25,035 nucleotides of DNA from Silvanigrellaceae bacterium (GCA_049423385.1 JBMSQQ010000051.1:1-25035); one strand, 5' to 3'. Counted from the stretch's first letter, positions 2,901 through 19,295 are shown. Numbers and translations are program-made. The notes: generated by a model not told the origin, from the sequence alone.

Positions 2901-2965
2901 GCCGGTATCCCCCTTGATTCAGCCAAGGGTGGCGCATTGGTGATTGATTGTCGACAAAACGGTGA

Positions 2966-2992
2966 CAATCGGTTGGTTTTACAAACCGATTA
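2966..2992 (-). promoter_or_regulatory. Sigma28/FliA-like promoter candidate (TAAT-N15-ACCGATTG) lying within an 8-bp inverted repeat
   Basis: Matches the TAAA-N15-GCCGATAA spacing. Inverted repeat aatcggtt (2967-2974) / aaccgatt (2984-2991). Confidence 0.45.
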
Positions 2993-3008
2993 AAACGTGT
3001 TCTTTGAA

Positions 3009-4241
3009 CTAAGGAACCTGCTCCATGACAATCCTTGTCACAAGCCTGCCGCGCAATGTTTCCACTCCCCTGGAGACAACCTTGAAAACCGTTCCCGGTG
3101 GAAACAGGACTTCCATTTCGTTTTTGAACTCTGAAATCTCATCAATCATGCGACCGCTCTTTGATGTGATTTGAAAAATCGTGTTGCCTGCAAAACGCTC
3201 GCCTGCATTGCGGGTCGTGCTGGTGAAAGCTTTCTCGGTCACGTTCGCACCCACCTTGTAGACAGCCGAGAGCTCATCAGAAAGGCTAATCCCTCTGTAT
3301 ACAACTCCCTGGAATGCCTTTTCGGATAGTTTGGTGAGTCCGGAACTTGCTGCTTCGATAACAGGTCTCAGCGCAGCCAACTCCGCCTGGTTTCCGCTGC
3401 GCAACGCATTGTTGATGGGCGTGTAGCCCATCCTTGTGTAATAGTTGAGAGCACCCAGCTCACTCACATCCAACTTGAGGTAGTATCTGTTCTTTCCGAT
3501 CAGTTCCTTCGCAGCGCGCCAACTGTGCATTTGCGCAGATGCCAAAAATTCTTCCACTTTCAGAAGTGTTGGTTCAGAGGCAATATGCCGCGTGAGGTTG
3601 AGCGACGTGTTCGAAAAGACGGTGGGAACACTGTTGACGGCCGCGGGCACTGCGCGAACGGCATTGATTCGTGTTACGAGAAGAAAGCCAAGCGACTTGA
3701 CCGAACCCAGCCCCAGAGTGGCTACGGTATCAATCGCCAGATTACCCCATGGATCTTCTGGTGCAGCCCCTGTGTCGATGCAGCGACAACCCGAACCATC
3801 GCAATAATGGACTGCGAATTCACCACATTTTCTCGGTGTGTTTTCGGGGCATACCTTGGGAGTACGATGCGCAAGATTGACCGCGAGTGTGTACCATCGG
3901 TTCTCACCTGCAAGTGTTCCACCGCGAACAACGATTCTCATCACGCGAACGTTCTTTTCATCACTGACCATCGTCAGTTCACGAATGACGGGAGTTCCCT
4001 TGCCGACGTATTTTGCGTTTTTGTTGGCTTCCAGATCGTCTGGACTTGCAAAAACGGGAATGTTGTCTTTGGTGACCATGAAGTGTTCAGGCCACACCGT
4101 GCATGCAGGGACAGAACTGACGTCAGACTCCAAACCCGATTTGGCAACCGGCTTGCAGGCCTGAAGCACAAACAAGACGAGCAGAAGAAACGAAGTGGCC
4201 AAGTGGATTCGAGGAAACAAACGATGGAATGGCGATCGCAT
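3009..4241 (-). CDS. Lipoprotein with a C-terminal R-S-E clade mono-ADP-ribosyltransferase toxin domain
   Basis: ATG 4241 is preceded by GGAGG. Lipobox LQA|C. Catalytic motifs VYRG, FTSTT and EME (ExE), with the typical YT..GY..IN..LR helix upstream. Confidence 0.9.
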   Translation of the reverse strand: MRSPFHRLFPRIHLATSFLLLVLFVLQACKPVAKSGLESDVSSVPACTVWPEHFMVTKDNIPVFASPDDLEANKNAKYVGKGTPVIRELTMVSDEKNVRVMRIVVRGGTLAGENRWYTLAVNLAHRTPKVCPENTPRKCGEFAVHYCDGSGCRCIDTGAAPEDPWGNLAIDTVATLGLGSVKSLGFLLVTRINAVRAVPAAVNSVPTVFSNTSLNLTRHIASEPTLLKVEEFLASAQMHSWRAAKELIGKNRYYLKLDVSELGALNYYTRMGYTPINNALRSGNQAELAALRPVIEAASSGLTKLSEKAFQGVVYRGISLSDELSAVYKVGANVTEKAFTSTTRNAGERFAGNTIFQITSKSGRMIDEISEFKNEMEVLFPPGTVFKVVSRGVETLRGRLVTRIVMEQVP

Positions 4242-4268
4242 GGAACCTCCCGACGCAGCACGCGGGAG

Positions 4269-4295
4269 GTATCGGAACTTCAGGAAAAACCATGA
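4269..4295 (-). promoter_or_regulatory. Sigma28/FliA-like promoter (TCAT-N15-TCCGATAC)
   Basis: Exact 15-nt spacer. The -10 element ends 27 nt before the ART start codon. Confidence 0.6.
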
Positions 4296-4330
4296 CTGGA
4301 ATTTATCATTCAACGACCAAAATAACGAAT

Positions 4331-5398
4331 TTACGGCAGTATCTTCGAAGGGTTCAAAAGTCTTCCATATTGCCTAATCTCAAAGTGAAGGTGGGGTGTG
4401 ATTCCATAGCCCGAAGCATTTCCACTTCGACCCGAGCTTGCAATCTTCGCACCTTTTTCCACATAGGAGCCATGGCTGTAGCTGAAAGAAGTCAGGTGAG
4501 CATATCGGCTTGAGTAGCCTTCCTCATGTTTCACATCGACAACATTTCCATATGAATATTCAAACGCCGGATCGACAATCGTGCCCGCGCGGCTGGCATA
4601 AACGGGTTCACCCACCGCGGCGACAATATCGATACCCTGGTGCCCACGTCCGGACGCGCGGGGTGCCCCAAAATAGCCGCTGCCACCCGAATCATTTCGA
4701 ATGTTGCGGCCCCTGGTCGGCCACACAAACGCACCGTCATCAATCGCAGCGGATTCACTCGCACCCGCCGATGCACCGGGCCGCCTCTGTTGTGCCGATG
4801 CACCCAGTAGCCTGTCAAAATGGCGCGATACCACCAGGAAACTTTCAGCGTTGAGCATGTTGCAATTGAGCAACTGTGCAGGAGTCGGAACGTTGCCATT
4901 GGACGTTGCGGCTGGAGTTGCCTTTGGATCGCCGACCGGCGAGGGAGATGAGCCCGCAACTGGAGTCGCTGCAGGGGCAGAAGAAACCAGCTCTGACGGG
5001 ATTCGAGTTTCCGGTTTTACGTCTTCATTCAGCGACCGTTGAACCTTGCCAATTTCACCCGTCGGCAACCTGACTTCAACAAGATCGAAGAGCCTCCAGT
5101 GATCAATTCCCTCATGTTTCAAGGATTCAACGATCAACACTGTCCCCTGGGGTACGGGACAAAACCCGTCGCCCACACCACCGGAAACAAGATTTGTTTT
5201 GAGGGATGTGTTTTCCTTTGCGGTCAAAGTCTCAATGGACGCGCCCTGTCCATTGCCGGCATCTCCGGCAGTAGAAACCCTTGAGTCGATCTGCTTGCAC
5301 GACACCATAACGGCACCTGCAAGAGTGGAAAAAAGACAACCCACAACAATCCAATTTGTGCGGAGCATTCTCGACGAAACAACACGTTGCCTGTTCAT
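4331..5398 (-). CDS. M23-family (LytM-like) zinc peptidoglycan endopeptidase lipoprotein
   Basis: HQGID (HxxxD), YAHL and PHLHFE (HxH) motifs. Lipobox MVS|C. ATG 5398 has an AAGGA SD. Confidence 0.92.
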   Translation of the reverse strand: MNRQRVVSSRMLRTNWIVVGCLFSTLAGAVMVSCKQIDSRVSTAGDAGNGQGASIETLTAKENTSLKTNLVSGGVGDGFCPVPQGTVLIVESLKHEGIDHWRLFDLVEVRLPTGEIGKVQRSLNEDVKPETRIPSELVSSAPAATPVAGSSPSPVGDPKATPAATSNGNVPTPAQLLNCNMLNAESFLVVSRHFDRLLGASAQQRRPGASAGASESAAIDDGAFVWPTRGRNIRNDSGGSGYFGAPRASGRGHQGIDIVAAVGEPVYASRAGTIVDPAFEYSYGNVVDVKHEEGYSSRYAHLTSFSYSHGSYVEKGAKIASSGRSGNASGYGITPHLHFEIRQYGRLLNPSKILP

Positions 5399-5452
5399 CT
5401 CGGTTGGTCCTTTTTTCAAATCAGTCGGCTTTTTCCGGCGGCCGACGCTTGG

Positions 5453-5479
5453 TTATCGGATTATCAGCGAACAACCTGA
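5453..5479 (-). promoter_or_regulatory. Sigma28/FliA-like promoter (TCAG-N15-TCCGATAA)
   Basis: The -10 element matches GCCGATAA at 7 of 8 positions with an exact 15-nt spacer, upstream of the M23 gene. Confidence 0.65.
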
Positions 5480-5480
5480 G

Positions 5481-6701
5481 TTACCCTTGCCCGACACTTG
5501 CCAAAAATCCACGGCTCCAGCGATTTCCATTGCAAACCGGTGAATCCGGATTGGCACTCAGGGCCTTGCAACGCTTCACCTGTTCTTTTGTGAATGGACC
5601 GAAGGCATTTTCTCCCTCGACACATGCACCCACCTGGGCATCGAATTCTGCGCCCACGGGACACCGAGCTGCGCCGTGCAGCCAAATCGCCATGCCACGC
5701 GACCAACGGATGTTGGAGCAGGCTTCGCCCCCACCTTTTTCTCGACACGCATCCTGCATGCCCTGGGTGAAGGGTCCTTGTGCCTCGCTTGCCGACAAGC
5801 ACATCATGCCACCGGCGTTTCCAACCGGAGCGGCAGAAAAACCTTCGGGACACGCGAGTGAATCCGGATTCGGTGAGGGAGTTCCACCCTTGTCGGTGCG
5901 GCGCTCAAGTCCTGCCACTATCGTTGGGACATCGTCGGTTCTGACAAATGTGAATCCCTCTTGCTTGAGTTGCTTGACCATCAATTTGGTCAGGTCGATG
6001 GTTCGCGAGTGGACGTCGTGCAGCAGGATGATGCCGCGATTGAGTTCGCGGGTTTCGTTCATGTAACCATCCAGACACTTTTCAACCGAATCACCAAACG
6101 ACCAGCATGCCCAGTCTGCAGCGGCAGAAAGTGTTTTGTCTGCGCGCTCGAGGCGTTCTCCGCCAATATCCCAAAAAACGGAACCCACATATTTGGTGAG
6201 TCCAGCACTGTTGAGAATGTTGGCAACCCCAGAGCTCCAATCACCATAGGGAGCACGGAAAAGAAAATGGCCCTTGTCCACATGCTGTTTGATGAGTTCA
6301 TCAGTTCTACGCACTTCGGCGACGGGATCGCTTGATTTTGTCATGTGCGGGTGACTGTATGAGTGATTGGCAACCAAATGACCATCCTGCTGAAGCTGTT
6401 TGACAACTTCAGGATATTGCGCGGCGTTGCTGCCCTGCAGAAAGAAGGTTCCCTTGATGCCTTCGTTTTTGAGAAAACGCGAAAGTTCGGAGGTGCGCGG
6501 ACCAGGGCCATCATCAAACGTCAAGGAAACAGAGCCACCTGCCATACCGTGGCCCATAAGCTGCGGACCGGTGAAATCCTGTACGTTCGAGTCACCGCCA
6601 TCACGGCCCAGGCGACCACAGGCCAGGGTTGCAAATACCAACGAAAATCCACCCACAATCTGAGCAACACGACGAACATTGCGGTTCAAATTCGAAGCCA
6701 T
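5481..6701 (-). CDS. CE4/NodB polysaccharide (peptidoglycan/chitin) deacetylase lipoprotein with two C-terminal Cys-rich repeats
   Basis: TFDDGP, HSYSH, RAPYG and LLHD motifs. Lipobox TLA|C. ATG 6701 has an AGGAG SD. Confidence 0.92.
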   Translation of the reverse strand: MASNLNRNVRRVAQIVGGFSLVFATLACGRLGRDGGDSNVQDFTGPQLMGHGMAGGSVSLTFDDGPGPRTSELSRFLKNEGIKGTFFLQGSNAAQYPEVVKQLQQDGHLVANHSYSHPHMTKSSDPVAEVRRTDELIKQHVDKGHFLFRAPYGDWSSGVANILNSAGLTKYVGSVFWDIGGERLERADKTLSAAADWACWSFGDSVEKCLDGYMNETRELNRGIILLHDVHSRTIDLTKLMVKQLKQEGFTFVRTDDVPTIVAGLERRTDKGGTPSPNPDSLACPEGFSAAPVGNAGGMMCLSASEAQGPFTQGMQDACREKGGGEACSNIRWSRGMAIWLHGAARCPVGAEFDAQVGACVEGENAFGPFTKEQVKRCKALSANPDSPVCNGNRWSRGFLASVGQG

Positions 6702-6869
6702 GTGAAGTCTCCTCGTGCACTGTGAACAAATGTAGTTGGCATCATCCAGCACAAGCCATGCCAGAATCATAATAATGATTCCAGCATCTTAAGTTTATTT
6801 CAACTGTTCAAGGTTCAGACAGTTGGCAAAAACTTTTCAATGGCCTCATGAAACAACAAAACAACATCC

Positions 6870-8150
6870 TCAAAACCGCGCATAAATCTTCAGAGTGTTG
6901 GTCAAGACCGATGCCGCAAGATTTCTATTTTTTCCCGAAAGCGGAACATCGTAATCGATGTCCCACTGCACAGGCAGGAAAAAATCCAGCGCGGAAAGCG
7001 TGAGACCCGCCTGTACAGAATAGAGATGAGATTCAGGTGAGAACTCGACACCACCAAGAGTCGCGCGTGGTTCAAAATCGTACTTGAATTGCCCGTTCAA
7101 CAGCACACGACTCAAAGCATCAGAAACATCTGCAGGGCTCAACGCGATTTTCATGAAACCAACATTCCGAGGATCATCACGCCGAAACTCGGCAGAATTT
7201 GCGATATTGTCTGCACCTGGCGAGTTCACATCCGCGTTGTTGAGCACGGTGCTGTCGAGCAACGATGTTCTTGACTTTTTTGCTGGAAGCAACATCGATT
7301 CCCATTGATTCTGCCATGAAATCACAATTGCCGAAGATGCAGCCCAATCAAGATTTGATCTGATTCCGAGGTCGACTGTCCCACGGCCGGTCGGTCGTTG
7401 CGCTGCAGGAACGTCCCGGAACGAACCCGTTGGCAATCGCAAACCTGCGCCCAAAGAGAAATTCACCGCCCAATCGCGCGCCCAAAGTCCATTGACAGGA
7501 TCAGCCAATGCGACAAGCGCGCCCAATTCAAGATCTCCGAGCCCCGTTGTTCCAGCTGTTGGAATTGCAGCACGCGTGACCAGCGAGGCTGCGACGTCCT
7601 TGATGGGAACGCCCGCCTTGACCGAAAGTTTTTCGCCCGTCGGAAGTGTCAGAACGCTGTTGAACGGCAACGACAAACCGTTCTCATTGATCCCGGAAAG
7701 ACAAGCGGAAACCGTCAAGCATAGACCGTCACTCACCAGCTTTGCCGCTGCTGCCTCCACAAATTCGTTGTATTTTTTTGCATAAAGAGACGACTTTTGA
7801 AACGCCGCGCCATCGATCGCAAGCTTGTTGAATGCGACCATGGGAGCAACAAGTTGAAGCGAAACAGCATCACTCCATCCGTACTCAACAACAAATGCAC
7901 CCGCACCGGCGGAAAGCGTGAAGCCAGAGTCTTCCTTTTTGCCGTCCGGGGAAAAGGCCTGGGTCGCCGTGGCAGACTTGAACAACAGGCGCCCGCGGAA
8001 AACTTTTTCCGGAAGTGTCTTGCCCTCACCCACCAATGCAGTTGGTTTTTGTTGAGGCACAGATGAATCCTGGGATTGAGCCCATGCGATTCCGTGGGTG
8101 AAAATCGTTGCGACAAGAAAAAGAGCTGTCCTGTTTTTTCCTGAACACAT
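6870..8150 (-). CDS. Probable outer-membrane beta-barrel protein (MetA-pathway/COG4313-like channel)
   Basis: Signal peptide ending AWA|Q, alternating amphipathic strands, GLGDLELG, GLRLPTG and PTGRG.VD motifs, and a C-terminal Phe (LKIYARF). ATG 8150 has a GGAG SD. Confidence 0.65.
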   Translation of the reverse strand: MCSGKNRTALFLVATIFTHGIAWAQSQDSSVPQQKPTALVGEGKTLPEKVFRGRLLFKSATATQAFSPDGKKEDSGFTLSAGAGAFVVEYGWSDAVSLQLVAPMVAFNKLAIDGAAFQKSSLYAKKYNEFVEAAAAKLVSDGLCLTVSACLSGINENGLSLPFNSVLTLPTGEKLSVKAGVPIKDVAASLVTRAAIPTAGTTGLGDLELGALVALADPVNGLWARDWAVNFSLGAGLRLPTGSFRDVPAAQRPTGRGTVDLGIRSNLDWAASSAIVISWQNQWESMLLPAKKSRTSLLDSTVLNNADVNSPGADNIANSAEFRRDDPRNVGFMKIALSPADVSDALSRVLLNGQFKYDFEPRATLGGVEFSPESHLYSVQAGLTLSALDFFLPVQWDIDYDVPLSGKNRNLAASVLTNTLKIYARF

Positions 8151-8259
8151 AAAATATGACTCCATCGATCCTGTTTTCCCGACCGCATCAGCTTGCAGAA
8201 TTTTTTGATGACGGGCAAATTTTTCAAGGATCACACAAAAACAGATGGATGGAAACGTC

Positions 8260-9924
8260 ATGCTTCGCACTCATACCCTTGTTGTTCGCGACAAAGTTGC
8301 CATTTTGCCTTTGCTGGCCATCCTTCCGGCCTGCGGTTCAAATCTGGAAAACAAGGCACTGCCCAAACCTGCAAACGAATTGAGCCAAGCCGACGTCACC
8401 GACGACAACATACGTTCCGCCAACCAACGCTGGAACGAATTATCTTCCAAATTGAAACTGTTGAATGATGGTTCAGCTTCCTCATTGAAAAGCCCAAGCG
8501 ACTGGTTTTCCGACACTGCGGATGCCCGTTCGGCCTACAACAGCCTGACAGAGACCATCGCTGCGGAGCATTTGAAAACAGCGCGCAGCACAGGTTGCGC
8601 GGAAGTCGTTTCTTTCGAGACTCTTGGAAAAGCGAAGTCCATCGCAATTGGCTCTGCCGTTCGATTCCCCAGCGAAGTCGAAACGGCCAAGTGGTACCTC
8701 ATGAAATACAAACGATTCAAAGCCGATGGAACACCTGATGCAATGGTCAATGGCGCATTGGTTTCTGTTCCCACGGCGACCACCAACACATACCCGGTGA
8801 TTGCCTATGCACATGCTGGTGATGCAGGATTGTCGGCGCTGGAGATTGCAGCCGTGTTTGGAGAACTTCAAGCAAAGCACATTGTCGTGGCACCCGCATT
8901 TCCGGGTGAGTCCATCTGCAAATTTGGAACCAACTCAGCCAACAAATCTGCATGTGATGCATCGGGCCGATACTTCGACGCTGTTGGAGTGTCAGCTCCC
9001 TTCAGCACGGATGCCGAGGATCTTCTCGCCGCACACAATTGCCTTGTGACTCCCAATGCACTGCCCGATTTCAATTCAACCGTTTTGGATCGCATCAAAT
9101 TCCAGAACATTCCCGACGCAGCCACTGCAATGCCAGTGTCATACATGTTTGGCTCTTCCCGTGGAGGCCTGACCACTTCGATCGCTTTGGCAAAGAACAC
9201 AGCGATGCTTCAATACAATGCCAAAACCGGAACAACCCGGTACAGCGAACCCAAGTATTTTTACTGCGCGGGAACAAACATCAATCCCACGTCTTTCACC
9301 TATGGCGAAATTCGCGTTTATCTGGAAGCGGTCGTCAAGGGAACCGCTGAATCTTCTGCGACATACCGACTGCCAACCGCGCCACAGCTGAATGATTTGT
9401 TCAAAGACTATCGCGAAGGTCGCCTGAGTTCCGCCGAAGCCGCGCTGCTCATTCAAACCCGGGACGCCACCTTCAATGCCCCCCTGGCTCTCGCATCGGT
9501 GAGAAAATGGAGCACCGGCGACAAGGGCGCGTTTTTCACGATGCACGGCACTCTCGACAAATCGATTCCCATTTCCCAGGGAATCTTTGGCGGAAGTGTC
9601 TTTGCGAGCATCAATGCGATCCTGACTGCAAACAGACAATCAGATCCTACTGCAGCTCCGGGAGTTCATCTTTCCACGATGGGTACCATTGCTCAACCAC
9701 CCTACTCTGTGGATGGCGGCAAAACCCTTGCCCCAGGCTCCACCATGCATGGCGACTTTGCATGGTTCGACAGTCTCGTTGGAGTGAACACCTCGGTGAC
9801 AGACAGTGCTGGTCAACCCGTTGCACTCGATGCGAGCTACCCTTTCCTTGGCAAGAAACCCCTGGATGCATTCGCGGCGTGGCTTGAAAACAGTTCGGTC
9901 GGATGCGGCGCTTCAATTCCCTGA
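8260..9924 (+). CDS. Alpha/beta-hydrolase fold lipoprotein (lipase/esterase/peptidase-like)
   Basis: Lipobox LPA|C, YPVIAYAH strand, nucleophile elbow GSSRGG, HGTLD..IP (candidate acid) and a late MHG (candidate His). The start could be 8245 or 8260. Confidence 0.75.
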   Translation: MLRTHTLVVRDKVAILPLLAILPACGSNLENKALPKPANELSQADVTDDNIRSANQRWNELSSKLKLLNDGSASSLKSPSDWFSDTADARSAYNSLTETIAAEHLKTARSTGCAEVVSFETLGKAKSIAIGSAVRFPSEVETAKWYLMKYKRFKADGTPDAMVNGALVSVPTATTNTYPVIAYAHAGDAGLSALEIAAVFGELQAKHIVVAPAFPGESICKFGTNSANKSACDASGRYFDAVGVSAPFSTDAEDLLAAHNCLVTPNALPDFNSTVLDRIKFQNIPDAATAMPVSYMFGSSRGGLTTSIALAKNTAMLQYNAKTGTTRYSEPKYFYCAGTNINPTSFTYGEIRVYLEAVVKGTAESSATYRLPTAPQLNDLFKDYREGRLSSAEAALLIQTRDATFNAPLALASVRKWSTGDKGAFFTMHGTLDKSIPISQGIFGGSVFASINAILTANRQSDPTAAPGVHLSTMGTIAQPPYSVDGGKTLAPGSTMHGDFAWFDSLVGVNTSVTDSAGQPVALDASYPFLGKKPLDAFAAWLENSSVGCGASIP

Positions 9925-9986
9925 AGTGCTCACATCCGACCGGACGTTGTTTCATCGGCAATTCTGCCGGCAGTGCGATTTCCGAA

Positions 9987-10973
9987 TCAGTTCCAGTCGA
10001 GCGAGACCGATGCCTGATACTCGGTGACGCGACTCTCAAAGAAGTTCTTTTCCTTGGGCAGGTCCATAATCTCGTTCATCCAGGGGAATGGTGTGTCTTC
10101 CACGCCAAAAAGCGGATCCAAGCCCACAGATTCAAGCCGGCGGTCGGCAATGTAGCGAATGTAGACCGAGAACTGTTCCTTGCTCATGCCAACAACGTCC
10201 CGTGGCAAACAGTCGGAAACGAAAGCATCCTCAAGCTCAACGACGCGGCTGATGTTTGCACGCACCGCCGCCTTGACGTCATCCGTCCATGCTTCGGGAT
10301 TTTCAACGATGTACTGGTTGATAAGCTTCGTGCCAAAACGGCAATGCAGTGATTCATCGCGAACGATGTACTCGAGCTGCTCGGCCGTGCCAACCATCAG
10401 GTTGCGGCGCTTGAAATTCAGCAACAAAACAAACGCGCTGTAAAACTGCATGCCTTCCATACCCAGATAGTAGGCGCACAGATTTTCCAGGAACGTCTTT
10501 TTGCCGGCCAGAGATTCAGTCGAGAACGCAGGGCTCATCACGCCATTCAAGAAAGATGACTGAAAGTCATGCTTGTCCTTGATGGTCCCAAACCGCTTGA
10601 ATTCAGAAAAGACCTCTTTCTGGTCCATCGACAACGATTCAACGATGTGCGCATACGACCAAGAGTGGATGCTTTCCTGAAATGCTTGTCCGCAAAGATA
10701 CTGACGCACTTCCGGATTGGTCAGGTGGCGATAGATCGCCATGACGATGTTGTCACCCACGAGGACGTCTGTGTTTGCGAAGAAGCTGAGGATCTTCTTG
10801 ATGAGGTGTTTCTCATCGGCATTCAACACACCATTGCTCTTCCATTGCTGAATGTCCGAGGCCATCGAAATTTCCTGCGGAAGCCAGTGGTTCTTGCAAA
10901 GGTTTTTGAATTCGTCCCAGGCCCAAGGGTATTCAAAGGGCATCAGCTGGGTTTGGGTTGCATTCAATAACAT
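9987..10973 (-). CDS. nrdB: Ribonucleoside-diphosphate reductase beta subunit, class Ia
   Basis: FFANTD, ESIHSWSY (ExxH plus the radical Tyr), EGMQFY, DESLH and C-terminal NFFESRVTEY. Confidence 0.97.
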   Translation of the reverse strand: MLLNATQTQLMPFEYPWAWDEFKNLCKNHWLPQEISMASDIQQWKSNGVLNADEKHLIKKILSFFANTDVLVGDNIVMAIYRHLTNPEVRQYLCGQAFQESIHSWSYAHIVESLSMDQKEVFSEFKRFGTIKDKHDFQSSFLNGVMSPAFSTESLAGKKTFLENLCAYYLGMEGMQFYSAFVLLLNFKRRNLMVGTAEQLEYIVRDESLHCRFGTKLINQYIVENPEAWTDDVKAAVRANISRVVELEDAFVSDCLPRDVVGMSKEQFSVYIRYIADRRLESVGLDPLFGVEDTPFPWMNEIMDLPKEKNFFESRVTEYQASVSLDWN

Positions 10974-11006
10974 GGTGTTTGCTCCTGTGGTTTTGTGACC
11001 CGATTG

Positions 11007-13421
11007 TTATTGGCAGCTTTCGCAATCGGGGTTTTCAATTGAGCATGCTTTCGGACCCGCCGACGACGTCGACGTTGTTGCACCGGTTGTTCCTGCGCTG
11101 GTGGCTGTTCCGGCATTGATGCTGGACTTCTCAACTCCCGTCGCAGCCTTGGTGCGCAGATAGTAGGTCGTCTTCAAGCCAGCATGCCAAGCATAACGGT
11201 ACATCTCGTCGAGACGACGACCCGATGGCGCGCCCAGGTATAGATTCAAGCTTTGAGCCTGGTCGATGTAGACCTGACGAACTGCAGCGCAGCGGATGAG
11301 TTGCTCGGGCTCAACGTCGAACGCTGTTTGATACAATTCCTTGAGGTCTTGCGGAATATCAAAATTCTGCACCGAACCATCTGCACGCTTCAGCTCGCGA
11401 GCCATTTGCGCATTCCACAATTGGCGTTCCTTGAGGTCGTCAATCAAGTACTCATTGATGACCGTGTAGTCGCCACCGAGGTTGGTCTTGACGAAAAGGT
11501 TCTTGTAGCTCGGTTCGATCGACTGAGTGCAACCGGCGATGTTGGAAATCGTCGCCGTCGGCGCGATGGCCATGCAAAGGCTGTTGCGCATGCCGCCCTT
11601 CACCTTTTCACGCAGCGTATCCCAAGCGAACTTGCCGGGGAAACCTTCTTGAGCCAACAGGTCAGCCGCAAAGATGGTCTCGTTCTTTGTGTTGCTGAAG
11701 AATGCTGGCACTTCGGGAGTCCGAACATGGCTTCCAAGATCTTTGAGTGTATCCAAGGGCACACGACCTTGTGACCAGCTGGAACCTTCATAGGTCTGAT
11801 AACTTCCACGCTCACGCGCCAGCTCAGCCGAAGCCTCGACCGAGTGATAGCCAATGGCTTCCATGATTTGCGCCGACAACATGACAGCACCTGGTGAACT
11901 GTACGGGATGCGCTTCATGTAGAGAACATCCTGAAAGCCCATCAAGCCGAGTCCAACAGGGCGATGGCGCTCATTGGCGCGCTTGGCCGATTCAATCGGA
12001 TAGAAGTTCTCGGTGATCACATTGTCGAGCATCCGCATCGCCGCGCGAACTGTCGTACGCAGGGCTTCATATGGATTCGGCTGCTGGAAGATCGCCTTTA
12101 GGTTGACCGAACCGATATTGCAGACCGCGGTTTCATCGCCACTCGTGTTGAGGGTGATCTCGGTGCACAGGTTGCTCGAATGAACCACGCCAACATGTTT
12201 CTGGGAACTTCTCAGGTTGCAGGGGTCTTTGAAGGTGATCCAGGGGTGGCCGGTTTCAAACAGCATCGTCAGCATTTTGCGCCACAAGGTGACGGCCGAC
12301 ACGGTTTTGAAGTTCTTGATTTCGCCGTTCTTGGCCTTTGTTTCATAAGTCTCATAGCGAGCCTTGAATTCGGTGCCAAAAGTCTCATGAAGGTCCGGGG
12401 TTTCGCTCGGACAGAAAAGCGTCCATTCGGCATTCGCTTCCACGCGCTGGAGGAACAAATCAGGTACCCAGTTCGCTGTGTTCATATCGTGGGTGCGACG
12501 GCGCTCATCGCCCGTGTTCTTGCGAAGCTCGAGGAAGTCTTCAATATCGAGGTGCCATGTCTCGATATACGCGCACACTGCGCCCTTGCGCTTGCCGCCC
12601 TGATTGACTGCAATCGTCGACGAGTCCTGAACCTTGATAAACGGAATGACGCCCTGGGAACGTCCGTTGGTTCCCTTGATCCATGAACCGCTCGCGCGGA
12701 TGGGAGTCCAGTCGTTGCCAAGACCACCGGCAAACTTCGAGAGGAGCGCGTTGTCTGAATACTGTCTATAGATATCAACGAGGTCATCCTGGACCGTGGT
12801 CAGGAAGCAACTCGACATTTGCGAACGCGCGGTGCCGGCATTGAACAATGTCGGAGTACTGGGGACGTAAAGCATCTGGGAGATCACGTTATAAAACTCT
12901 GCAGCACGTGTCGTCGCCTGCACAGAATCAGCCTCTGCCAGAGCCATGCCCATCGCGACACGCATCCAGAAGTGCTGAATGTCTTCGTATCGACTTCCTT
13001 CCTTGTGAAGCAGGTAGCGATCGTAAAGAGTATGGGCGCCGAGGTAGTCCAGCAGATAGGTTCTCTCTGCCTTGATTTCCTTCTGCAGGGAATCAAGATT
13101 CAGTTCAGCCACGCGAGCAGACATATGTCCCTGCTCAATAGCGAAGCCCACGTACTGCCGGAGGGTTGGACGGAGTTTTTCGTTTTCAGGCAGGCCAACA
13201 GGTTTGCCGTCGTGATTCACAGACAAGGTCGCCAGTGTTTCAAGACGCAACTTCTCGGCCAAAACCGCTGCCGCAAGGAATGAATACTCTTTACCCATCT
13301 CAATCTTTGGGCGCAGATCAAGAATGATGTTGTCGAGTGACCCGGCGAGGTTGATGTTCGTCAGATCAAGCCCTTGATTTTGAACTCGAGGATGAAAGAG
13401 CCGGAATGCAGCGTTCGCCAT
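11007..13421 (-). CDS. nrdA: Ribonucleoside-diphosphate reductase alpha subunit
   Basis: PSTPTLFN, SSCFL, SNLCTEI, VCN, APTATIS, KTTYYLR and C-terminal CESCQ. AAGGAG SD before ATG 13421. Confidence 0.98.
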   Translation of the reverse strand: MANAAFRLFHPRVQNQGLDLTNINLAGSLDNIILDLRPKIEMGKEYSFLAAAVLAEKLRLETLATLSVNHDGKPVGLPENEKLRPTLRQYVGFAIEQGHMSARVAELNLDSLQKEIKAERTYLLDYLGAHTLYDRYLLHKEGSRYEDIQHFWMRVAMGMALAEADSVQATTRAAEFYNVISQMLYVPSTPTLFNAGTARSQMSSCFLTTVQDDLVDIYRQYSDNALLSKFAGGLGNDWTPIRASGSWIKGTNGRSQGVIPFIKVQDSSTIAVNQGGKRKGAVCAYIETWHLDIEDFLELRKNTGDERRRTHDMNTANWVPDLFLQRVEANAEWTLFCPSETPDLHETFGTEFKARYETYETKAKNGEIKNFKTVSAVTLWRKMLTMLFETGHPWITFKDPCNLRSSQKHVGVVHSSNLCTEITLNTSGDETAVCNIGSVNLKAIFQQPNPYEALRTTVRAAMRMLDNVITENFYPIESAKRANERHRPVGLGLMGFQDVLYMKRIPYSSPGAVMLSAQIMEAIGYHSVEASAELARERGSYQTYEGSSWSQGRVPLDTLKDLGSHVRTPEVPAFFSNTKNETIFAADLLAQEGFPGKFAWDTLREKVKGGMRNSLCMAIAPTATISNIAGCTQSIEPSYKNLFVKTNLGGDYTVINEYLIDDLKERQLWNAQMARELKRADGSVQNFDIPQDLKELYQTAFDVEPEQLIRCAAVRQVYIDQAQSLNLYLGAPSGRRLDEMYRYAWHAGLKTTYYLRTKAATGVEKSSINAGTATSAGTTGATTSTSSAGPKACSIENPDCESCQ

Positions 13422-13501
13422 ATGATGCTCCTTGCAGGCGTGTGGGTCTTCCCATAAGACGACAAAACGATTCCCACAGGGGGCTGCACGAGAGGGCTCG
13501 T

Positions 13502-13575
13502 GCCTTACATCTGTTCGGGGTCATCAATTTGTCTTCTCACATATAGTGGTACCGTAGCCTAAAAAACACTGTCAA
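13502..13575 (-). promoter_or_regulatory. Candidate nrdAB promoter with degenerate NrdR box(es)
   Basis: Perfect TTGACA on the minus strand at 13570-13575 with only a weak -10. AcATATAGTG (13539-13548) matches the right half of the NrdR box. A weaker AcATcT core lies 32 bp away at 13507. Confidence 0.4.
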
Positions 13576-13831
13576 TAGCGTGGGCACGATTTCCTTAGCC
13601 GAAATTTTTAATTGGCTGAATGGACAAGAGATTTTTCAAGAACTGTATGGATTTAAAAAATCCATCAAAGTTGCACGCAAGATTAGCGAAAAACTCTATG
13701 CATAATCGTAAAGCACGGGTTGCAACATAGACAAACAAAGATGAACTCCTGTAACAGTGCACTCTTCAGGGCGGTGCATCAGAAAACAGCAGTTCGCATT
13801 CGATCACCGGCCAAACCAGAAAGGATGTACA

Positions 13832-14098
13832 TTGACCCACCACCATTGGGATTTCTTTGGTCCCGACGCCCAAAAAACAGCGGAACACTTCAAGAAACAC
13901 GTTGACGAATTCGCAAATTCACTTTCCCTGAAGATTGATGAAGACGGATTTTTCTCGGCATCGCAAGTTCATGTTTGCTTCTGGGTGGCAATCGAGGATG
14001 AAATGATGGCGGACATGACACAAAAAAAACTCCGCCCGAAGCGGAGTTTAAGCAGACAAGATCACATCAACCTTTTAGCTGGACTGGACTCCAACTGA
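13832..14098 (+). CDS. Small conserved hypothetical protein (88 aa)
   Basis: TTG start with an AAGGA SD. WDFFGPDAQKTAEHF..H..EF...LRPKR resembles a small hypothetical family I recall from Bacteroidota (WDFxGP.A.KTAEH...LKPHRG). Function unknown. Confidence 0.7.
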   Translation: MTHHHWDFFGPDAQKTAEHFKKHVDEFANSLSLKIDEDGFFSASQVHVCFWVAIEDEMMADMTQKKLRPKRSLSRQDHINLLAGLDSN

Positions 14099-14100
14099 GC

Positions 14101-15432
14101 TCACAGCGGCGCAACACCCTGCATTTGGCTCACGAGTGCCTTCTCGTCCGCATGCTCAAACACGGCACGCACAAGCCCCAGCGGGACATATTTGAACGCA
14201 TCAATCAACAGTGCCTTGCTTGAACTTTCCAATGGTTGCCCATTGTCGAAGGCGTCGTCCAACGCGGCAACAAGGTCATTGTCGCTGCCTTGCACCCTGC
14301 AATCCGATCCAGGTGCCCTGCAAAGATCCTTGATCGCATCGAGTCCCATTCCGACGAGCACGAGAGCCGACGTGACGGGTGCCTTGCCCTGACGAAGGTT
14401 GCGCACTGCCATGCGCATCATCTCGACCTGGGCTTTTGCCTTGACCAGCGATTGGGTCCGGGTTGAATCATTCAGAAACGGTTCAAGAACCTGGTTCATG
14501 TAGGATGCGATGCCAAATCCGTTTGCCTTGAACGACAATCCACGCGCAATTGTCACACCCACGTCGCTGGTCTTGAAGATGCCGCTGTAGGTTGCGGTGT
14601 CGAAAACATTCCATCCTCCGCGCACCGGTTGCCATTCACCAGCCATGGGACCCACGGGTACACTCACAGCCACATCGTGAAATCGGTTGAGCATCCTGCT
14701 TTCCTTGAACTCAAACTTGCCTATCACAGGATTGGTGGAAATGGCGCTGCCTGTGAGGGCAAAATCCACAAGGCGAACCTTGAGGCCTGTCTCGTTGCTT
14801 TCCATCGCCGGCGGCAACATCGCGTCGTCGGTCAGAACTTGATAAAGACAACGCACGCGCTTGAATGGCGAAAACATCTTTTTGGCAACGCCATTTCTGC
14901 GCATGATCGGCAGGCCGGCCTCAATCACGGGTAGCCCCACCTTGAGTCCTTCCGTGCAAGTCCGATGCAAAAGTGCATTGTAACCTGGTGCTGCAAGCGA
15001 CAGCCCGAGAGCACCAAGTCCAAGACTCGATTGCAAAACCGAACCTGGCACCTGGACGACCAGCGACAGACATTCACCTGCCTTGAGTCCCTCGCAGAAA
15101 CGTTGTTGGGCAGGTGCTCTGAAGAGACTCGCATCCGATTTGATGGACGCAGGATCGGCACCACTCACGGTTTGCTCGCGTACTGGGGAAAGATTTGAAA
15201 TCGCCGGCTCAACTTCCACACGCGACGGATCATTTCCAGTCGACGGTGAGGTTGAGACATCGTTGTCACCAACCGTGGCAATGGGTTCGCGTGAAATGCG
15301 CACATTTGTGCCACATGCCGTTGGCGTCGACACCATGCTCACACCTGCCAACAGCGCAATGAGCATGAAGGGCCAGTGGGAATCTGATTTCTGCCGCGGG
15401 TTTTGCCGCGGATTGTGTTCAGTGTTTTGCAT
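14101..15432 (-). CDS. Hypothetical exported protein, probable lipoprotein
   Basis: Long ORF. ATG 15432 follows a GAAGGGGG SD, then a hydrophobic stretch and PTA|C. No recognisable domain. Confidence 0.7.
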   Translation of the reverse strand: MQNTEHNPRQNPRQKSDSHWPFMLIALLAGVSMVSTPTACGTNVRISREPIATVGDNDVSTSPSTGNDPSRVEVEPAISNLSPVREQTVSGADPASIKSDASLFRAPAQQRFCEGLKAGECLSLVVQVPGSVLQSSLGLGALGLSLAAPGYNALLHRTCTEGLKVGLPVIEAGLPIMRRNGVAKKMFSPFKRVRCLYQVLTDDAMLPPAMESNETGLKVRLVDFALTGSAISTNPVIGKFEFKESRMLNRFHDVAVSVPVGPMAGEWQPVRGGWNVFDTATYSGIFKTSDVGVTIARGLSFKANGFGIASYMNQVLEPFLNDSTRTQSLVKAKAQVEMMRMAVRNLRQGKAPVTSALVLVGMGLDAIKDLCRAPGSDCRVQGSDNDLVAALDDAFDNGQPLESSSKALLIDAFKYVPLGLVRAVFEHADEKALVSQMQGVAPL

Positions 15433-15568
15433 GGTCCCCCCTTCAATGCCTTTACGTCCGTTCGCGCAATGGGAACGGATGCCTTCGTGGCTTGTCAGCA
15501 ACAACGATGCCAGAGAAAAAGCCAACAAATGCATGTAAAAACACACATCAAGAAAGCTCGCCGGAAGC

Positions 15569-15602
15569 CAGTCGATGTCGAAGCATTCGACACTGTTTTT
15601 TT
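15569..15602 (+). terminator. Intrinsic-terminator-like hairpin with a T7 tail
   Basis: tgtcgaa-gca-ttcgaca (15576-15592), extendable by cag/ctg, followed by ttttttt. Confidence 0.4.
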
Positions 15603-15739
15603 ATTCAACATAGCACTATTAAATCTGATGTTTATTCTTTTTCTTGTCGACTTCAATTCGACTCGCTGATAGCCATGCAACGGGGGACCAATTGGTCTCG
15701 ACCATCTCCGTGAATGCTCAACAAAAAGAGGATTCCGAA

Positions 15740-18025
15740 ATGCATCACCCGAAAATGTCGATTTTCATGTTGGCTTTTCTTGCAACTACTGCAGCAATCT
15801 CCGGATGTCGTTCCTCGACGAGCAAAACACGCAGCACATCGGCGGGTGAGCTTCCAGAACAAACGAAACTCAACGTCACCAAGGCGCGGGTGATTGAATC
15901 CAACAACGAAATTGTCTCTCTCGAATTGGGTTCGCCCGACGAAACATTCAGTGGCCTGGGCACCTGGTTTTTCGTCGATGCAAAGAACTTTGCACCGCAG
16001 TACCTTGGATTGTTGCCGCACAAAGCTCGTCTGCCCATTCCGAAAACTGCAAGGTTGATGAGTGGTCAACGGGTGGATTGCTCACGCGTCGAAGGAAAAT
16101 CCGTTCTTTCCGCACTTTTTTCTGCAAATGAAATAAAGGCCGACTGCAGTGGCCGAGCGATTCGGATTCAATTGTCAAATGAAAGTCCGAACGCTGATGC
16201 AATTGCCAACCAGAATCTCGACACAGCACTTCGATCAGGGGCCAGCCTGATCCTTGCGGACACTGAAAATTCAAACAATCTGATTGAAATCACCATACGG
16301 GGAAACACTGTTTCAATTGCTGAAAACAAGCCTGGTCTCGACCGACCTGCACGCGTGACTTTCTCCAACTCAGAAATTCAAGCATTTTTTTCAGGGCAAG
16401 GATCTCTCGCGTTTCCGTGCACGAACACTGCATGCGCGAAAGCAGCAAGCCCTCTGACTCTCATGAGAAAAGGCAATGGAGATCTCGTCGCGATCCGCCG
16501 GGACAGCGCAAATTCTGGTGCGATTGTTGATAATTCCGTGCAGTCGTTCCGCCGTCCAGGTTCCGAAGGATTGCGCATTTCATCCTACAACGTTGAAAAT
16601 TTCTGGGATGATGTTCCAGACAACAGCAAAGCATACGACGATTTCTCATCTGAACTCTCAAATTGGTATTCCGAAGGATTTGCCGAGCGGAAGGCGCGCC
16701 GCATTCGCGATGCCTTGCTTGCAGCAGGATTGCCCGATGCAGTTGGTTTACAAGAAATCGAGAGTGCGGCGAACTCCGGGCGCTCGCTCGAACTTCTCAA
16801 GCCTTTGCTTGCACCGCTGGGCTACAACTACTTTGCGCTGGGTCAACAGGCGGAAGACAACCCCACTGCCGTGACAACAGCATTCATCAGCAAATATCCT
16901 TTGCTTGAAAACTCTCGTCTCGACTTCAGGTTTGATTCTTCCAAATTGAGGGATGCAGATCGGGACGACTTCATTTCAGCATCCAGGGACCCTCAAAGGG
17001 TGACTCTCGCACTTCCGGAAGGACAGCGGTTGGTGCTGCTCAACAGCCACTGGAAAAGCAAACGAGACAAATCTCCGGTGGGCGACGACATGCGCCGACA
17101 AATTGGACAATTGATGCGCTCTCATCTGGACGAACTCAGAGGCACGAGACATTCAAACTGGTCTGGAATCATTATGGGCGACTTCAATGCAGATTACAGG
17201 GAAGAGTCTGTCCAGGAAGGTCTGCGATTGGCGACAAATCTGGCAACGGCGCGCAATTCACAAAACAGCCTTTTTGACATGTGGCAGACCCGATCTGCTG
17301 AGCTCCAAGGTGATTATCCTCACGATTCCGAACTGACGGCCATCGACAATATCGTGGTCGATCAGAGCGTTCTCGCATTCAATTCACTTGTTCTTGCCCA
17401 TCCGCTGAGGGTCGTCGGAGAGTTTGGGGAGGCTGGAAAACTTTTGCTCAATGGCGACAAGCAACCCTTTCGATCACAAATACACCAAATCAAGGACGAG
17501 ACAGGATCCGAGAAAACTTTCCACAAAGACCTTGGGTATTCGGATCACCTGCCTCTCGTCGTCGAATTCCAGCGTTCGTTGAGCTTGCAGAAACAAATTT
17601 CGGCTGCGATTTTTTCGAATAACATTGAACAACAGACGGCCGCTTCATTGCCAAAAGTTGCAATTCCAGAATCAACATGTCGTGATTCGGAAACCACGGG
17701 TGTCGCAGCTCCTGAAATTCTCAATGCAATAGCATCTGCGCAACGGGGAGACTGTCTGGACCTGAACGGACAATTCCTTTTGCGCAAGACCGGACTCTTC
17801 AACGTCGCGTTCGATCTGCCGGACAATGGGACCCTGAAAGCGAACGAACGGATTGTCATCATCACCGCAGATCGTCCGTTTGGCGCGAATCGCGCTTGGC
17901 TGCGCAGCTCCCTCCAACAAAGTGCAGGCAAGAGCGTGACCCGTCTGCGCGGTCGACTCGGCATTGTTGATGGTGTGAAGGCGATCTTCATCAGTCAACC
18001 GCAGGCCGATATCATTATTGAATAA
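15740..18025 (+). CDS. Endonuclease/exonuclease/phosphatase (EEP) family extracellular nuclease lipoprotein
   Basis: SYNVENF, GLQEIE, HWKSK, GDFNA, IDNI and YSDHLP motifs. Lipobox ISG|C. ATG 15740 has a GAGGA SD. Confidence 0.9.
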   Translation: MHHPKMSIFMLAFLATTAAISGCRSSTSKTRSTSAGELPEQTKLNVTKARVIESNNEIVSLELGSPDETFSGLGTWFFVDAKNFAPQYLGLLPHKARLPIPKTARLMSGQRVDCSRVEGKSVLSALFSANEIKADCSGRAIRIQLSNESPNADAIANQNLDTALRSGASLILADTENSNNLIEITIRGNTVSIAENKPGLDRPARVTFSNSEIQAFFSGQGSLAFPCTNTACAKAASPLTLMRKGNGDLVAIRRDSANSGAIVDNSVQSFRRPGSEGLRISSYNVENFWDDVPDNSKAYDDFSSELSNWYSEGFAERKARRIRDALLAAGLPDAVGLQEIESAANSGRSLELLKPLLAPLGYNYFALGQQAEDNPTAVTTAFISKYPLLENSRLDFRFDSSKLRDADRDDFISASRDPQRVTLALPEGQRLVLLNSHWKSKRDKSPVGDDMRRQIGQLMRSHLDELRGTRHSNWSGIIMGDFNADYREESVQEGLRLATNLATARNSQNSLFDMWQTRSAELQGDYPHDSELTAIDNIVVDQSVLAFNSLVLAHPLRVVGEFGEAGKLLLNGDKQPFRSQIHQIKDETGSEKTFHKDLGYSDHLPLVVEFQRSLSLQKQISAAIFSNNIEQQTAASLPKVAIPESTCRDSETTGVAAPEILNAIASAQRGDCLDLNGQFLLRKTGLFNVAFDLPDNGTLKANERIVIITADRPFGANRAWLRSSLQQSAGKSVTRLRGRLGIVDGVKAIFISQPQADIIIE

Positions 18026-18051
18026 AAAACCCAATAATATTCGAATCTGAC

Positions 18052-18078
18052 TTAAGAGATTCGGAGAAAAACCGAGAC
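18052..18078 (+). promoter_or_regulatory. Sigma28/FliA-like promoter (TTAA-N15-ACCGAGAC)
   Basis: Exact 15-nt spacer upstream of the LPMO-like gene. Confidence 0.5.
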
Positions 18079-18084
18079 AATGGC

Positions 18085-18636
18085 ATGGGGAGGGACCATG
18101 CCTTGAAGATTTCGCTGGCAGCAATATCAGTGGCCTGTGGCTTTGCATTTCTCGTTGAATCCAGCAACGCAGCCGCACACGCCCGCTGGAAACTCAACAG
18201 CACCATCTCGGCTCCCCGAACAAACGACCCCGGCCTCAAAACCGCGCCCTGTGGGGGAGTGGCACGCACAACCAACGTGAAAAAGTACCTCGCGGGTCAA
18301 AAAGCCACTCTCGAGTTCGAGGAAACTGTGAATCATCCAGGAAGATACGAGGTCTATCTGTTGGATGCGCAAGAAAAGCCGGTCGCTGGTGTGCCAAGCC
18401 CACTGGCGAAACTCGAAGACTCACAAAACGATCAAATCATCGGCAGCAATTTTCACCAGTACAACATCACCTTTGATGTACCCGCAATCGATTGCACGGG
18501 CTGTGCATTTCAATTGGTTCAAGTCATGCTCGACAACCCGAATTCACCCAGCAACTATTACTCCTGCACAGATATATCTATCAGCACCAAAGCCCTCGAG
18601 AAGCCGACAGGTGTGAAGATTGAAAAACTCAAATAG
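18085..18636 (+). CDS. Secreted His-brace copper protein, lytic polysaccharide monooxygenase-like (AA11/X325-like; resembles the myxobacterial SCE4755-type family)
   Basis: Signal peptide ends AAA|H, so the mature protein begins with His (18178). PCGG, second His in NHPG (18334), CTGC..Q..Q and YYSCTDI. The true start may be TTG 18103 (GGAGGG SD). Confidence 0.82.
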   Translation: MGRDHALKISLAAISVACGFAFLVESSNAAAHARWKLNSTISAPRTNDPGLKTAPCGGVARTTNVKKYLAGQKATLEFEETVNHPGRYEVYLLDAQEKPVAGVPSPLAKLEDSQNDQIIGSNFHQYNITFDVPAIDCTGCAFQLVQVMLDNPNSPSNYYSCTDISISTKALEKPTGVKIEKLK

Positions 18637-18648
18637 GACAGAAACCAA

Positions 18649-19116
18649 ATGAAGATTGGTTTGCGAACAACAGTGGCAGCGACTTTTCTGGCCTGGGGAT
18701 GCAGCACCCAGGTTGCCCCTCTGCCGATAGCTTCGCTCAAGCCCAACGCATCCTCCAAGTCGAACGTCGATGCTTCGGCAAATCAGCCCCAAAATCAAAA
18801 CAACACTCAAAATCAACCCGGCACTGCGCCACAGCCCAATGAAACAACAAAATCATTGAGGCTCAGCTGGAACAAATCCACGTCGTCGAGTGTTGGCGCA
18901 TATCAAATCTATCTTGCACCACCAGCTGAAGGTCCCGCCAAACTTCTCAAGACAGTGAGTTCTGGTGCTGCAAACTCAGTTCCGACAACGGTCGACTTAC
19001 CGTTGAAAGATTTGGGCACACAGCCTACGGCAGGATCCAATGTTTGTTTCTACATCGTAGCCGAGGATCCCGAGACGATTTCGCCGCCATCTGAGACTTC
19101 TTGCGCCCAGTTCTGA
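18649..19116 (+). CDS. Small lipoprotein with a Q/N-rich linker and a fibronectin type III-like domain
   Basis: Lipobox AWG|C. LSW...YQIY...CFYIVA...S.PS FN3 pattern. Starts 12 bp after the upstream stop and has an AGGA SD. Confidence 0.78.
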   Translation: MKIGLRTTVAATFLAWGCSTQVAPLPIASLKPNASSKSNVDASANQPQNQNNTQNQPGTAPQPNETTKSLRLSWNKSTSSSVGAYQIYLAPPAEGPAKLLKTVSSGAANSVPTTVDLPLKDLGTQPTAGSNVCFYIVAEDPETISPPSETSCAQF

Positions 19117-19268
19117 AGCCAAAATAGATTCCTAAAGGAATATCACTAAAACAATAGATTCTAAAAATCCCAAACGCATAGAAAATCGAAATCTTGCAGC
19201 AAGAACAAATAAAAACATAGCATTACAAAATCCGTATTTAACTAAAAAAAATACAACAACAAAAAAAC

Positions 19269-19295
19269 TCAATTAAAGCTGAAATTTACCGATTC
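19269..19295 (+). promoter_or_regulatory. Sigma28/FliA-like promoter (TCAA-N15-ACCGATTC)
   Basis: Exact 15-nt spacer, preceded by A-tracts that could act as an UP element. The -10 element ends 26 nt before GTG 19322. Confidence 0.55.

Follow-up and report, generated by a model that had tools for sequence, protein, structure and literature searches.

Four of five FliA-type promoter sites in a contig of an uncultured Silvanigrellaceae bacterium (GCA_049423385.1 JBMSQQ010000051.1:1-25035; this whole stretch of 25,035 nucleotides (nt) is hereafter referred to as the window) probably belong to a genome-wide set of about 180-200 motifs likely read by the organism's own flagellar sigma factor FliA (sigma28), which would act as a master switch of the motile state. 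The window is contig C51 of the genome G000 (3.47 Mb, 183 contigs, 90.6% complete). An initial annotation had proposed that five intergenic sites, each with an exact 15-nt spacer, tie five exported, non-flagellar effectors (a di-heme protein, an ADP-ribosyltransferase (ART), an M23 peptidase, a polysaccharide monooxygenase-like (LPMO-like) protein and an adhesin) into a hidden attack-phase regulon. All five strings are present in sense orientation with that spacer, while the intergenic status of the ART site depends on the start chosen: it holds for ATG 4241, which has a GGAGG ribosome site, and not for the longest-open-reading-frame start at 4313.

Genome-wide promoter motif and FliA

A loose pattern built from the five strings gave 8 matches against 1.2 expected; this test is circular, and C51 was therefore excluded from the training of the promoter model in all further tests. 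Outside C51, CCGATA was the most enriched 6-mer in non-coding upstream regions (121 of 1809; shuffles gave 23.7 and the antisense strand 64), and -35 words upstream of it peaked at spacers 15 and 16 only. The resulting two-block model consists of YTCAAGT, a spacer of 15 (48%) or 16 nt (44%), and KCCGAWA. Under four-fold cross-validation, with 1484 regions leading into gene ends as controls, 209 of 1969 upstream regions reached at least 12 bits when held out, compared with 18 controls (31.6 after scaling), and 85 upstream regions reached at least 16 bits, compared with no control. The excess over controls rose from 177 at 12 bits to 190 at 10 bits and 198 at 8 bits, and we therefore predict about 180-200 such promoters in G000. 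Enrichment of the motif upstream of gene starts is strong and genome-wide.

The -10 box of held-out sites lies a median of 41 nt from the gene start. Spacers among the 209 sites were 15 nt in 108, 16 nt in 93, 14 nt in seven and 17 nt in one, so that the exact 15-nt spacer loses the special status first given to it. The first letter of the -10 box was T in 113 sites and G in 78, and clustering of sites along contigs was weak (22 of 166 neighbours versus a rate of 0.09).

A FliA is encoded in G000, as the proposal of a FliA regulon presupposed (TIGR02479, 266 bits against a cut-off of 189.6), inside a flagellar cluster, and it retains residues matching E. coli R74, D81, R84 and R91 (numbering counted by hand). 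The anti-sigma factor FlgM is present as well (PF04316, above cut-off), its gene lying upstream of flgK/flgL-like genes. FliA similarity and a FliA tree both place the organism in Bdellovibrionota, which supports the initial reading. The closest FliAs are 76-95% identical, from records mostly labelled Silvanigrellales or Silvanigrellaceae where labelled that far, and that of Fluviispira multicolorata is 83% identical. In the tree, a quick, midpoint-drawn, single-gene IQ-TREE run on 44 of 45 selected rows (L015 had no FliA with the search motif), G000 falls inside a 22-row Silvanigrellales clade (support 100) and within a 12-row group of metagenome-assembled genomes (MAGs) of about 50% GC (support 100), separate from a low-GC group with Fluviispira and a Silvanigrella MAG (support 98). 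A FliA relaxed by Phe at the position of sigma70 W433 was rejected as the cause of the large regulon, because this Phe is common to all 43 Bdellovibrionota FliAs examined, Fluviispira included, and an I79W change gave no rise in transcription in Pseudomonas, as stated in PMC12784957.

Candidate promoter sites in the window

The sites are as follows, with transcription start sites (TSSs) predicted from the spacing in PMC3627812 Table S2.

5453..5479, minus strand: predicted FliA-type promoter of the M23 gene (TCAG, 15 nt, TCCGATAA); predicted TSS about 5446
4269..4295, minus strand: predicted FliA-type promoter of the ART gene (TCAT, 15 nt, TCCGATAC); predicted TSS about 4262
18052..18078, plus strand: weak candidate FliA-type promoter of the LPMO-like operon (TTAA, 15 nt, ACCGAGAC); predicted TSS about 18085
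19269..19295, plus strand: predicted FliA-type promoter of the FG-GAP (adhesin-like) protein gene (TCAA, 15 nt, ACCGATTC); predicted TSS about 19302
2966..2992, minus strand: site before the di-heme cytochrome gene, 5.0 bits, rejected as chance

Held-out scores, on which the four folds agree, were 19.4 bits for M23, 16.5 for the adhesin, 13.6 for ART, 8.8 for the LPMO-like gene and 5.0 for the di-heme gene; the share of real sites in the corresponding score bands was about 1.0, 1.0, 0.77, 0.29 and 0. The M23, adhesin and ART sites can be regarded as secure. The LPMO-like site recurs as a footprint in six of eight genus relatives (8.5-18.4 bits), and this conservation rescues it, weak as it is alone, as a putative promoter. 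Among ART orthologues, five of the nine that could be evaluated carry a site 19-40 nt upstream (10.1-15.9 bits), one has 9.7 bits at 153 nt and three have 4 bits or less; one further locus is cut too short. For the adhesin, where the loci compared are family members and not orthologues, 11 of 19 other loci matched the N-terminus, of which seven reached 12 bits or more and none fell below 8.8. Control genes in relatives exceeded 8 bits in none of four cases for nrdA and one of 11 for the deacetylase. The reported absence of a site before nrdAB was likewise borne out, with none of at least 6 bits in the non-coding DNA before nrdA.

The di-heme site has to be dropped. Its score is at background level, nothing above 7 bits precedes the gene in any of 10 relatives, and in the closest relative both proposed boxes are altered while the spacer and flanks are kept; the site is most likely a chance match, because the surrounding DNA is conserved while both boxes changed. 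Upstream of the same gene (2930-2990, minus strand), the closest relative retains TCGGTTTGTAAAACCAA and TTTTGTCGAC, which may be the site of another regulator or a promoter.

The idea of a special five-gene set found no support either: the sites are four of about 190, and relatives do not keep these genes together. The di-heme gene directly follows M23 in the closest relative, and ART orthologues are located elsewhere. For this genome, finding three strong sites in the 12 upstream regions of the window is ordinary (P = 0.09), and of 20 loose pattern matches in the window 15 lie outside the five, such matches being common in coding DNA.

Predicted regulon targets

Predicted targets are strongly biased towards lipoproteins, a lipobox being present in 78 of the 177 genes that reach 13 bits, versus 154 of 1567 genes below 8 bits (P = 2e-27), which upholds the tendency towards exported effectors. 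The purely non-flagellar character ascribed to the regulon is not supported, as flagellins, CheW/CheV, a FliG-like gene and many signalling genes carry the motif. A Pfam scan covering 102 of the 177 top targets assigned a family to 38 and none to 64, compared with 47 of 60 controls with a family (the first 60 of 102 low-scoring genes, same regions). Flagellar or chemotaxis genes account for four of the 102. The 38 with a family also include a pilin-like gene, about ten signalling proteins (a sigma54 activator, HD domains, PilZ, kinases and a receiver), peptidases, an L,D-transpeptidase, Ig/cadherin and fasciclin proteins, cytochromes c, urocanase and proline dehydrogenase. Two L,D-transpeptidase targets have sites of 16.5 and 11.0 bits. 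A short DacB-family predicted lipoprotein of 293 aa (G000:C4:60685-61566), present in three of three genus genomes tested, is encoded close to the gene of an L,D-transpeptidase lipoprotein, which carries an 11-bit site.

One of the highest-scoring sites (21.7 bits) precedes a PocR-sensor sigma54 activator (G000:C12:8091-9677). In a Bacteriovoracaceae MAG the corresponding activator, 43% identical, also has a top-scoring FliA-type site (20.3 bits). Through this gene, FliA control could extend to a sigma54 tier throughout the phylum. No sigma54 box was found in nine regions before flagellins, flgM and flp with the pattern used.

Scores for flagellins, methyl-accepting chemotaxis proteins (MCPs), flgM, flp and tadA come from the in-sample model. 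Three of seven flagellin genes reach at least 12 bits, a fourth stands second in tandem behind one of them, and the rest score 5.4-9.9; two of six MCP genes reach at least 11 bits. One of the seven flagellin genes (G000:C31:14397-14810) has an in-frame TAA stop in its N-terminal domain. For the Tad pilus, cpaB was not found in G000 by TIGR03177; flp and tadA homologues did turn up when the Tad proteins of Fluviispira were used as tblastn queries, so that Tad is not missing.

Comparison with relatives

We counted a strict form of the pattern at right versus wrong spacers in 44 genomes or records; the wrong-spacer control was added since a reversed-pattern control was biased by base composition, and eight records with counts identical to others were dropped as duplicates. 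The strict pattern detects about a fifth of G000 sites, and its sensitivity may differ between lineages. Its excess was 36 in G000, 27-36 in three genus relatives, 22-69 in five other family members (G013, G014, G015, G017 and G018) and 54 in another (G034), and 16-76 in five MAGs grouping with Oligoflexales. Among low-GC genomes it was 10-11 in G036 (Fluviispira, 11), G037 and G038 and 12 in the family member G016, next to 13 in E. coli. Thirteen MAGs of Bdellovibrionales/Bacteriovoracales type by FliA grouping gave 0-37, most of them 5-22.

With the promoter model, upstream regions at 12 bits or more numbered 13 of 457 in Fluviispira (800 kb sampled) and, in 400-kb samples, 10 of 262 in G016, 14 of 254 in the Bacteriovoracaceae MAG and 5 of 248 in E. 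coli, all of which may be undercounts given that the model was trained on G000. Model-free word counts were also about threefold lower in Fluviispira than in G000. Seven of seven Fluviispira sites for which a G000 homologue was scored are matched by a site in G000, versus 14 of 149; the corresponding figures are 3 of 7 versus 8 of 81 for G016 and 1 of 5 versus 4 of 56 for the Bacteriovoracaceae MAG. A lipobox occurs in 101 of 290 targets in G000, in none of 19 in Fluviispira, none of 16 in G016 and 3 of 17 in the Bacteriovoracaceae MAG, and lipobox genes number 102 per Mb in G000 versus 36 in Fluviispira and 36-50 across the compared genomes. The cultured, prey-free Fluviispira retains a three- to fivefold smaller signalling core without the lipoprotein arm. 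From these counts, which involve non-independent kin, and a one-gene tree we infer that the large regulon was ancestral and was cut back in the low-GC group.

Proteins encoded in the window

The genes behind the four sites are listed below.

4331..5368, minus strand: M23 peptidase gene (start 5368 or 5398; PF01551, E 4.8e-27), predicted lipoprotein, the lipobox read from sequence
3009..4241, minus strand: ART gene, predicted lipoprotein with a C-terminal R-S-E ADP-ribosyltransferase domain (PF03496, PF01129)
18103..18636, plus strand: SCE4755-family polysaccharide monooxygenase-like secreted protein (start 18103 or 18085; NF043005, 95.4 bits against a cut-off of 75)
18649..19116, plus strand: small predicted lipoprotein, likely co-transcribed with the LPMO-like gene (12-nt gap)
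19322..24814, plus strand: large predicted lipoprotein with FG-GAP repeats and fn3-like domains (start 19322 or 19334; PF14312, E 3e-113)

Full-length ART orthologues occur in 10 of 12 genus relatives (57-63% identity). C29, R316, the STT/S motif, E375 and E377 are conserved in nine of nine aligned proteins, and the catalytic R, STS-type motif and ExE of R-S-E ADP-ribosyltransferase toxins are all found. The best PDB matches are 6DRE/6DRH (E 3e-19), the antibacterial Tre1/Tri1 pair (described in PMC8120803), followed by SpvB, Vis, XopAI and ExoS-type effectors with eukaryotic targets. The N-terminal part is Cys-rich, and no immunity gene is adjacent; the two ADP-ribosylhydrolase genes of G000 lie on other contigs than ART. 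A genome of the same class and a different family (G029) has 13 matches to the ART domain.

By family match, the product of 18103..18636 is a putative LPMO-like enzyme, and H26, H78, Y152 and Y153 are invariant in nine of nine. The predicted TSS of its operon coincides with the A of the in-frame ATG 18085; TTG 18103 is the likelier start, because ATG 18085 is not kept in relatives. The small lipoprotein gene follows in five of eight relatives, and its fibronectin-like (FN3) label could not be confirmed, no Pfam or NCBIfam family being found. The FG-GAP protein is a member of a paralogue family in the genome; it is adhesin-like, with a putative role in adhesion.

The di-heme protein matches a di-heme peroxidase model only weakly (47.7 of 150 bits). 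Converging on its gene, positions 2-1354 (plus strand) encode a multi-heme cytochrome c with repeated units that runs off the contig start. The deacetylase upstream of M23 is distantly like PDB 5JP6 (last of 25 matches), and its stop codon lies 2 nt before the M23 promoter. Its C-terminal part (5484-5900, minus strand) is a Cys-rich domain of about 125 residues with no Pfam family, which occurs in six other places in G000 and in many copies across the family.

Relation to known FliA regulons

A regulon of this kind is known from Bdellovibrio bacteriovorus, where TTAAG-N16-CCGATA is reported in 92 of 140 attack-phase promoters (Karunker 2013, PMC3627812). The proposed likeness is supported: TSS-mapped Bdellovibrio promoters have the same architecture, with TAAA, TCAA, TCAG or TCAT boxes, CCGATA or CCGAAA as -10, and starts, judged by eye, about 7 nt behind the octamer (PMC3627812 Table S2). 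The two systems share both boxes, the 15/16 spacing, a FliA reach far beyond flagella and the target classes of surface anchors, proteases, chemotaxis, signalling and numerous unknown proteins. Each also targets an NtrC-family activator of comparable length (Bd1891 in Table S2). The systems differ in that about 180-200 sites are predicted here against 92 of 140 TSS-mapped there, by methods that make the sizes not strictly comparable. Here, too, the -35 box is mostly TCAA and an ART lipoprotein is among the targets; no site precedes the Tad pilin, whereas the Bdellovibrio Tad operon is described as FliA-driven (PMC5430801). The order studied here also has cultured members that grow without prey, and the text of PMC5430801 presents FliA as cell-state master regulator as a trait of obligate predators.

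The class 3 FliA regulon of E. coli shares the sigma family, the consensus, FlgM and flagellin, MCP and cyclic di-GMP (c-di-GMP) gene targets. It differs in scale: 12 bits are reached by 5 of 248 upstream regions there (four beside fliA/fliC) and by 209 of 1969 in G000, where spacers of 15 and 16 are about equally used and the -10 box starts with T more often than G. As for Tre1 of Serratia proteamaculans, ART shares its R-S-E ADP-ribosyltransferase domain, but differs in being a predicted lipoprotein whose Cys-rich N-terminal part is unrelated and in having no immunity gene next to it; a PAAR domain was not found either. The regulon as a whole differs from that of Bdellovibrio in the order, the apparent size, the lipoprotein bias, the lack of a Tad link and the contrast with Fluviispira. 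We found no report of a FliA regulon in Silvanigrellales in the open-access literature; subscription papers or supplements could hold one.

Interpretation and alternative explanations

In the mechanism we propose, in which FliA dependence, timing and all protein activities are predicted, FlgM would release FliA, and RNA polymerase would start about 7 nt behind the -10 box. FliA would activate an old core that Fluviispira shares, made up of flagellins, chemotaxis and c-di-GMP/sigma54 signalling genes, and with it a large arm of fast turnover that comprises exported lipoproteins, hydrolases, adhesin-like proteins and ART. Genes would enter or leave the regulon by gain or loss of promoters and not by clustering, and the exported arm would most likely be used to attack or digest other cells or particles that the swimming cell encounters.

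Several observations weigh against this reading. The M23 site is kept in one of nine relatives (the closest, 16.3 bits) despite a deacetylase-M23 gene order kept in all nine, which suggests that this promoter was gained recently. In the window scan, the deacetylase, the nuclease-like protein and the gene at 8245-9924, all exported, are without a site. Upstream scores fall below 10 bits for flgM (7.0), four of seven flagellins (3.0-9.9) and four of six MCP genes (5.1-8.5), so that some expected targets are weak or operon-internal. The Tad pilin gene flp (7.0 bits) and tadA (6.6 bits) have no site, though tadA stands on a separate contig, where an operon-level promoter could be missed. Three short sigma70-family genes accompany RpoD, an RpoH-like factor and FliA. 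Finally, the 2930 genes were called by our own script, with gene starts and lipoboxes from our own heuristics.

Those three short sigma genes, together with the weak sites at flgM and some flagellins, leave a small chance that a sigma factor of the extracytoplasmic function (ECF) type or a DNA-binding protein reads the motif instead of FliA. We consider this quite improbable: the motif equals the FliA consensus, Bdellovibrio FliA is reported to drive such promoters in E. coli reporters (Avidan 2017, PMC5430801), and the G000 model ranks E. coli fliA, fliC and fliD in the top five of a 400-kb sample. That the sites are chance matches picked by eye is true of the di-heme site, and loose matches are indeed frequent in coding DNA. 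For the set as a whole, chance is so improbable as to be refuted by the upstream enrichment, the held-out scores (two window sites reach 16 bits, a level attained by none of the 1484 controls) and conservation in relatives, where the ART and LPMO-like sites recur.

A narrower version of our explanation, the attack-phase programme of a bacterial predator, with cultured Silvanigrella and Fluviispira having lost both predation and the lipoprotein arm, seems rather unlikely, if worth entertaining. It is favoured by promoter and target classes as in Bdellovibrio, by an ART closest to antibacterial Tre1 among solved structures, by the targeting of wall enzymes (M23 and both L,D-transpeptidases), by the richness in lipobox genes and lipobox targets relative to Fluviispira, and by a second DacB-family lipoprotein gene in three of three genus genomes tested, against one DacB gene in Fluviispira. 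Queries from E. coli also gave no match in G000 (91% complete) for ilvC, ilvD, ilvI, leuA, argB, argC, argE, trpA, trpB, trpC or a thiamine gene. However, his, thr, carAB and most tested purine genes were found there (purD was not), prey-free Fluviispira gave no hisD match, and DXR had no match in any of five genomes, Fluviispira included; these markers therefore fail to separate predators from non-predators. Nor does the motif excess track predation, the range of the 13 Bdellovibrionales/Bacteriovoracales MAGs overlapping the values of Fluviispira and E. coli. The second DacB-like protein matched no Bdellovibrio structure, and the siteless flp also speaks against this version. Counts of L,D-transpeptidases, at four in G000, 1-2 in low-GC relatives and 1-5 in Bdellovibrionales/Bacteriovoracales MAGs, have no discriminating power, and a c-di-GMP-I riboswitch, sought as a merRNA-like marker, had no match in five genomes, nor in controls, which makes it uninformative. 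The prey-modifying enzymes of Bdellovibrio act after the attack phase, which further counts against this version. It is quite conceivable, if short of probable, that the regulon instead marks a dispersal or foraging state of a scavenger or small-eukaryote parasite, whose exported proteins would be directed at particles, chitin or a zooplankton host and not at bacterial prey. PMC11656739 lists Silvanigrella aquatica and Fluviispira sanaruensis as non-predatory, a listing that rests on a literature search. According to PMC7386786, F. multicolorata grows chemoorganotrophically on agar, cultured family members are chemoorganotrophic, and the Daphnia pathogen Spirobacillus belongs to the same family. 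The LPMO-like gene in the regulon, the chitinase and chitin-binding genes reported in Oligoflexia (10.1101/2020.11.01.364414), the ART matches to effectors of eukaryotic targets and the presence of urocanase and proline dehydrogenase (amino-acid catabolism) among top targets fit such a life. Against it stand the antibacterial nature of the best ART match and the fact that Fluviispira, the sole named prey-free genome tested, is without the lipoprotein arm and ART (for ART, the low-GC relative G016).

Significance

The motile-state FliA regulon that we favour appears at least as large as that of Bdellovibrio, in an order with no cultured member known to prey on bacteria, which would make the trait both older and broader than predation or else point to unrecognised predators. 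In its boldest form, which we put forward as a doubtful but instructive possibility, the uncultured high-GC genus would be a predator or parasite with two phases that has so far gone unrecognised. Its regulon, with about 190 promoters, would be the ancestral attack programme of Oligoflexia, and its lipoprotein arsenal would include a Tre1-like toxin whose delivery needs no type VI system. Cultured Silvanigrella and Fluviispira would be secondary scavengers, having retained the signalling core but lost the arsenal. Were this so, sequence alone could reveal lifestyle through the lipoprotein arm of the regulon. The model yields a ranked list of about 190 genes predicted to be co-regulated, most of them without a Pfam family, and distinguishes a signalling core of old standing from an exported arm specific to the lineage.

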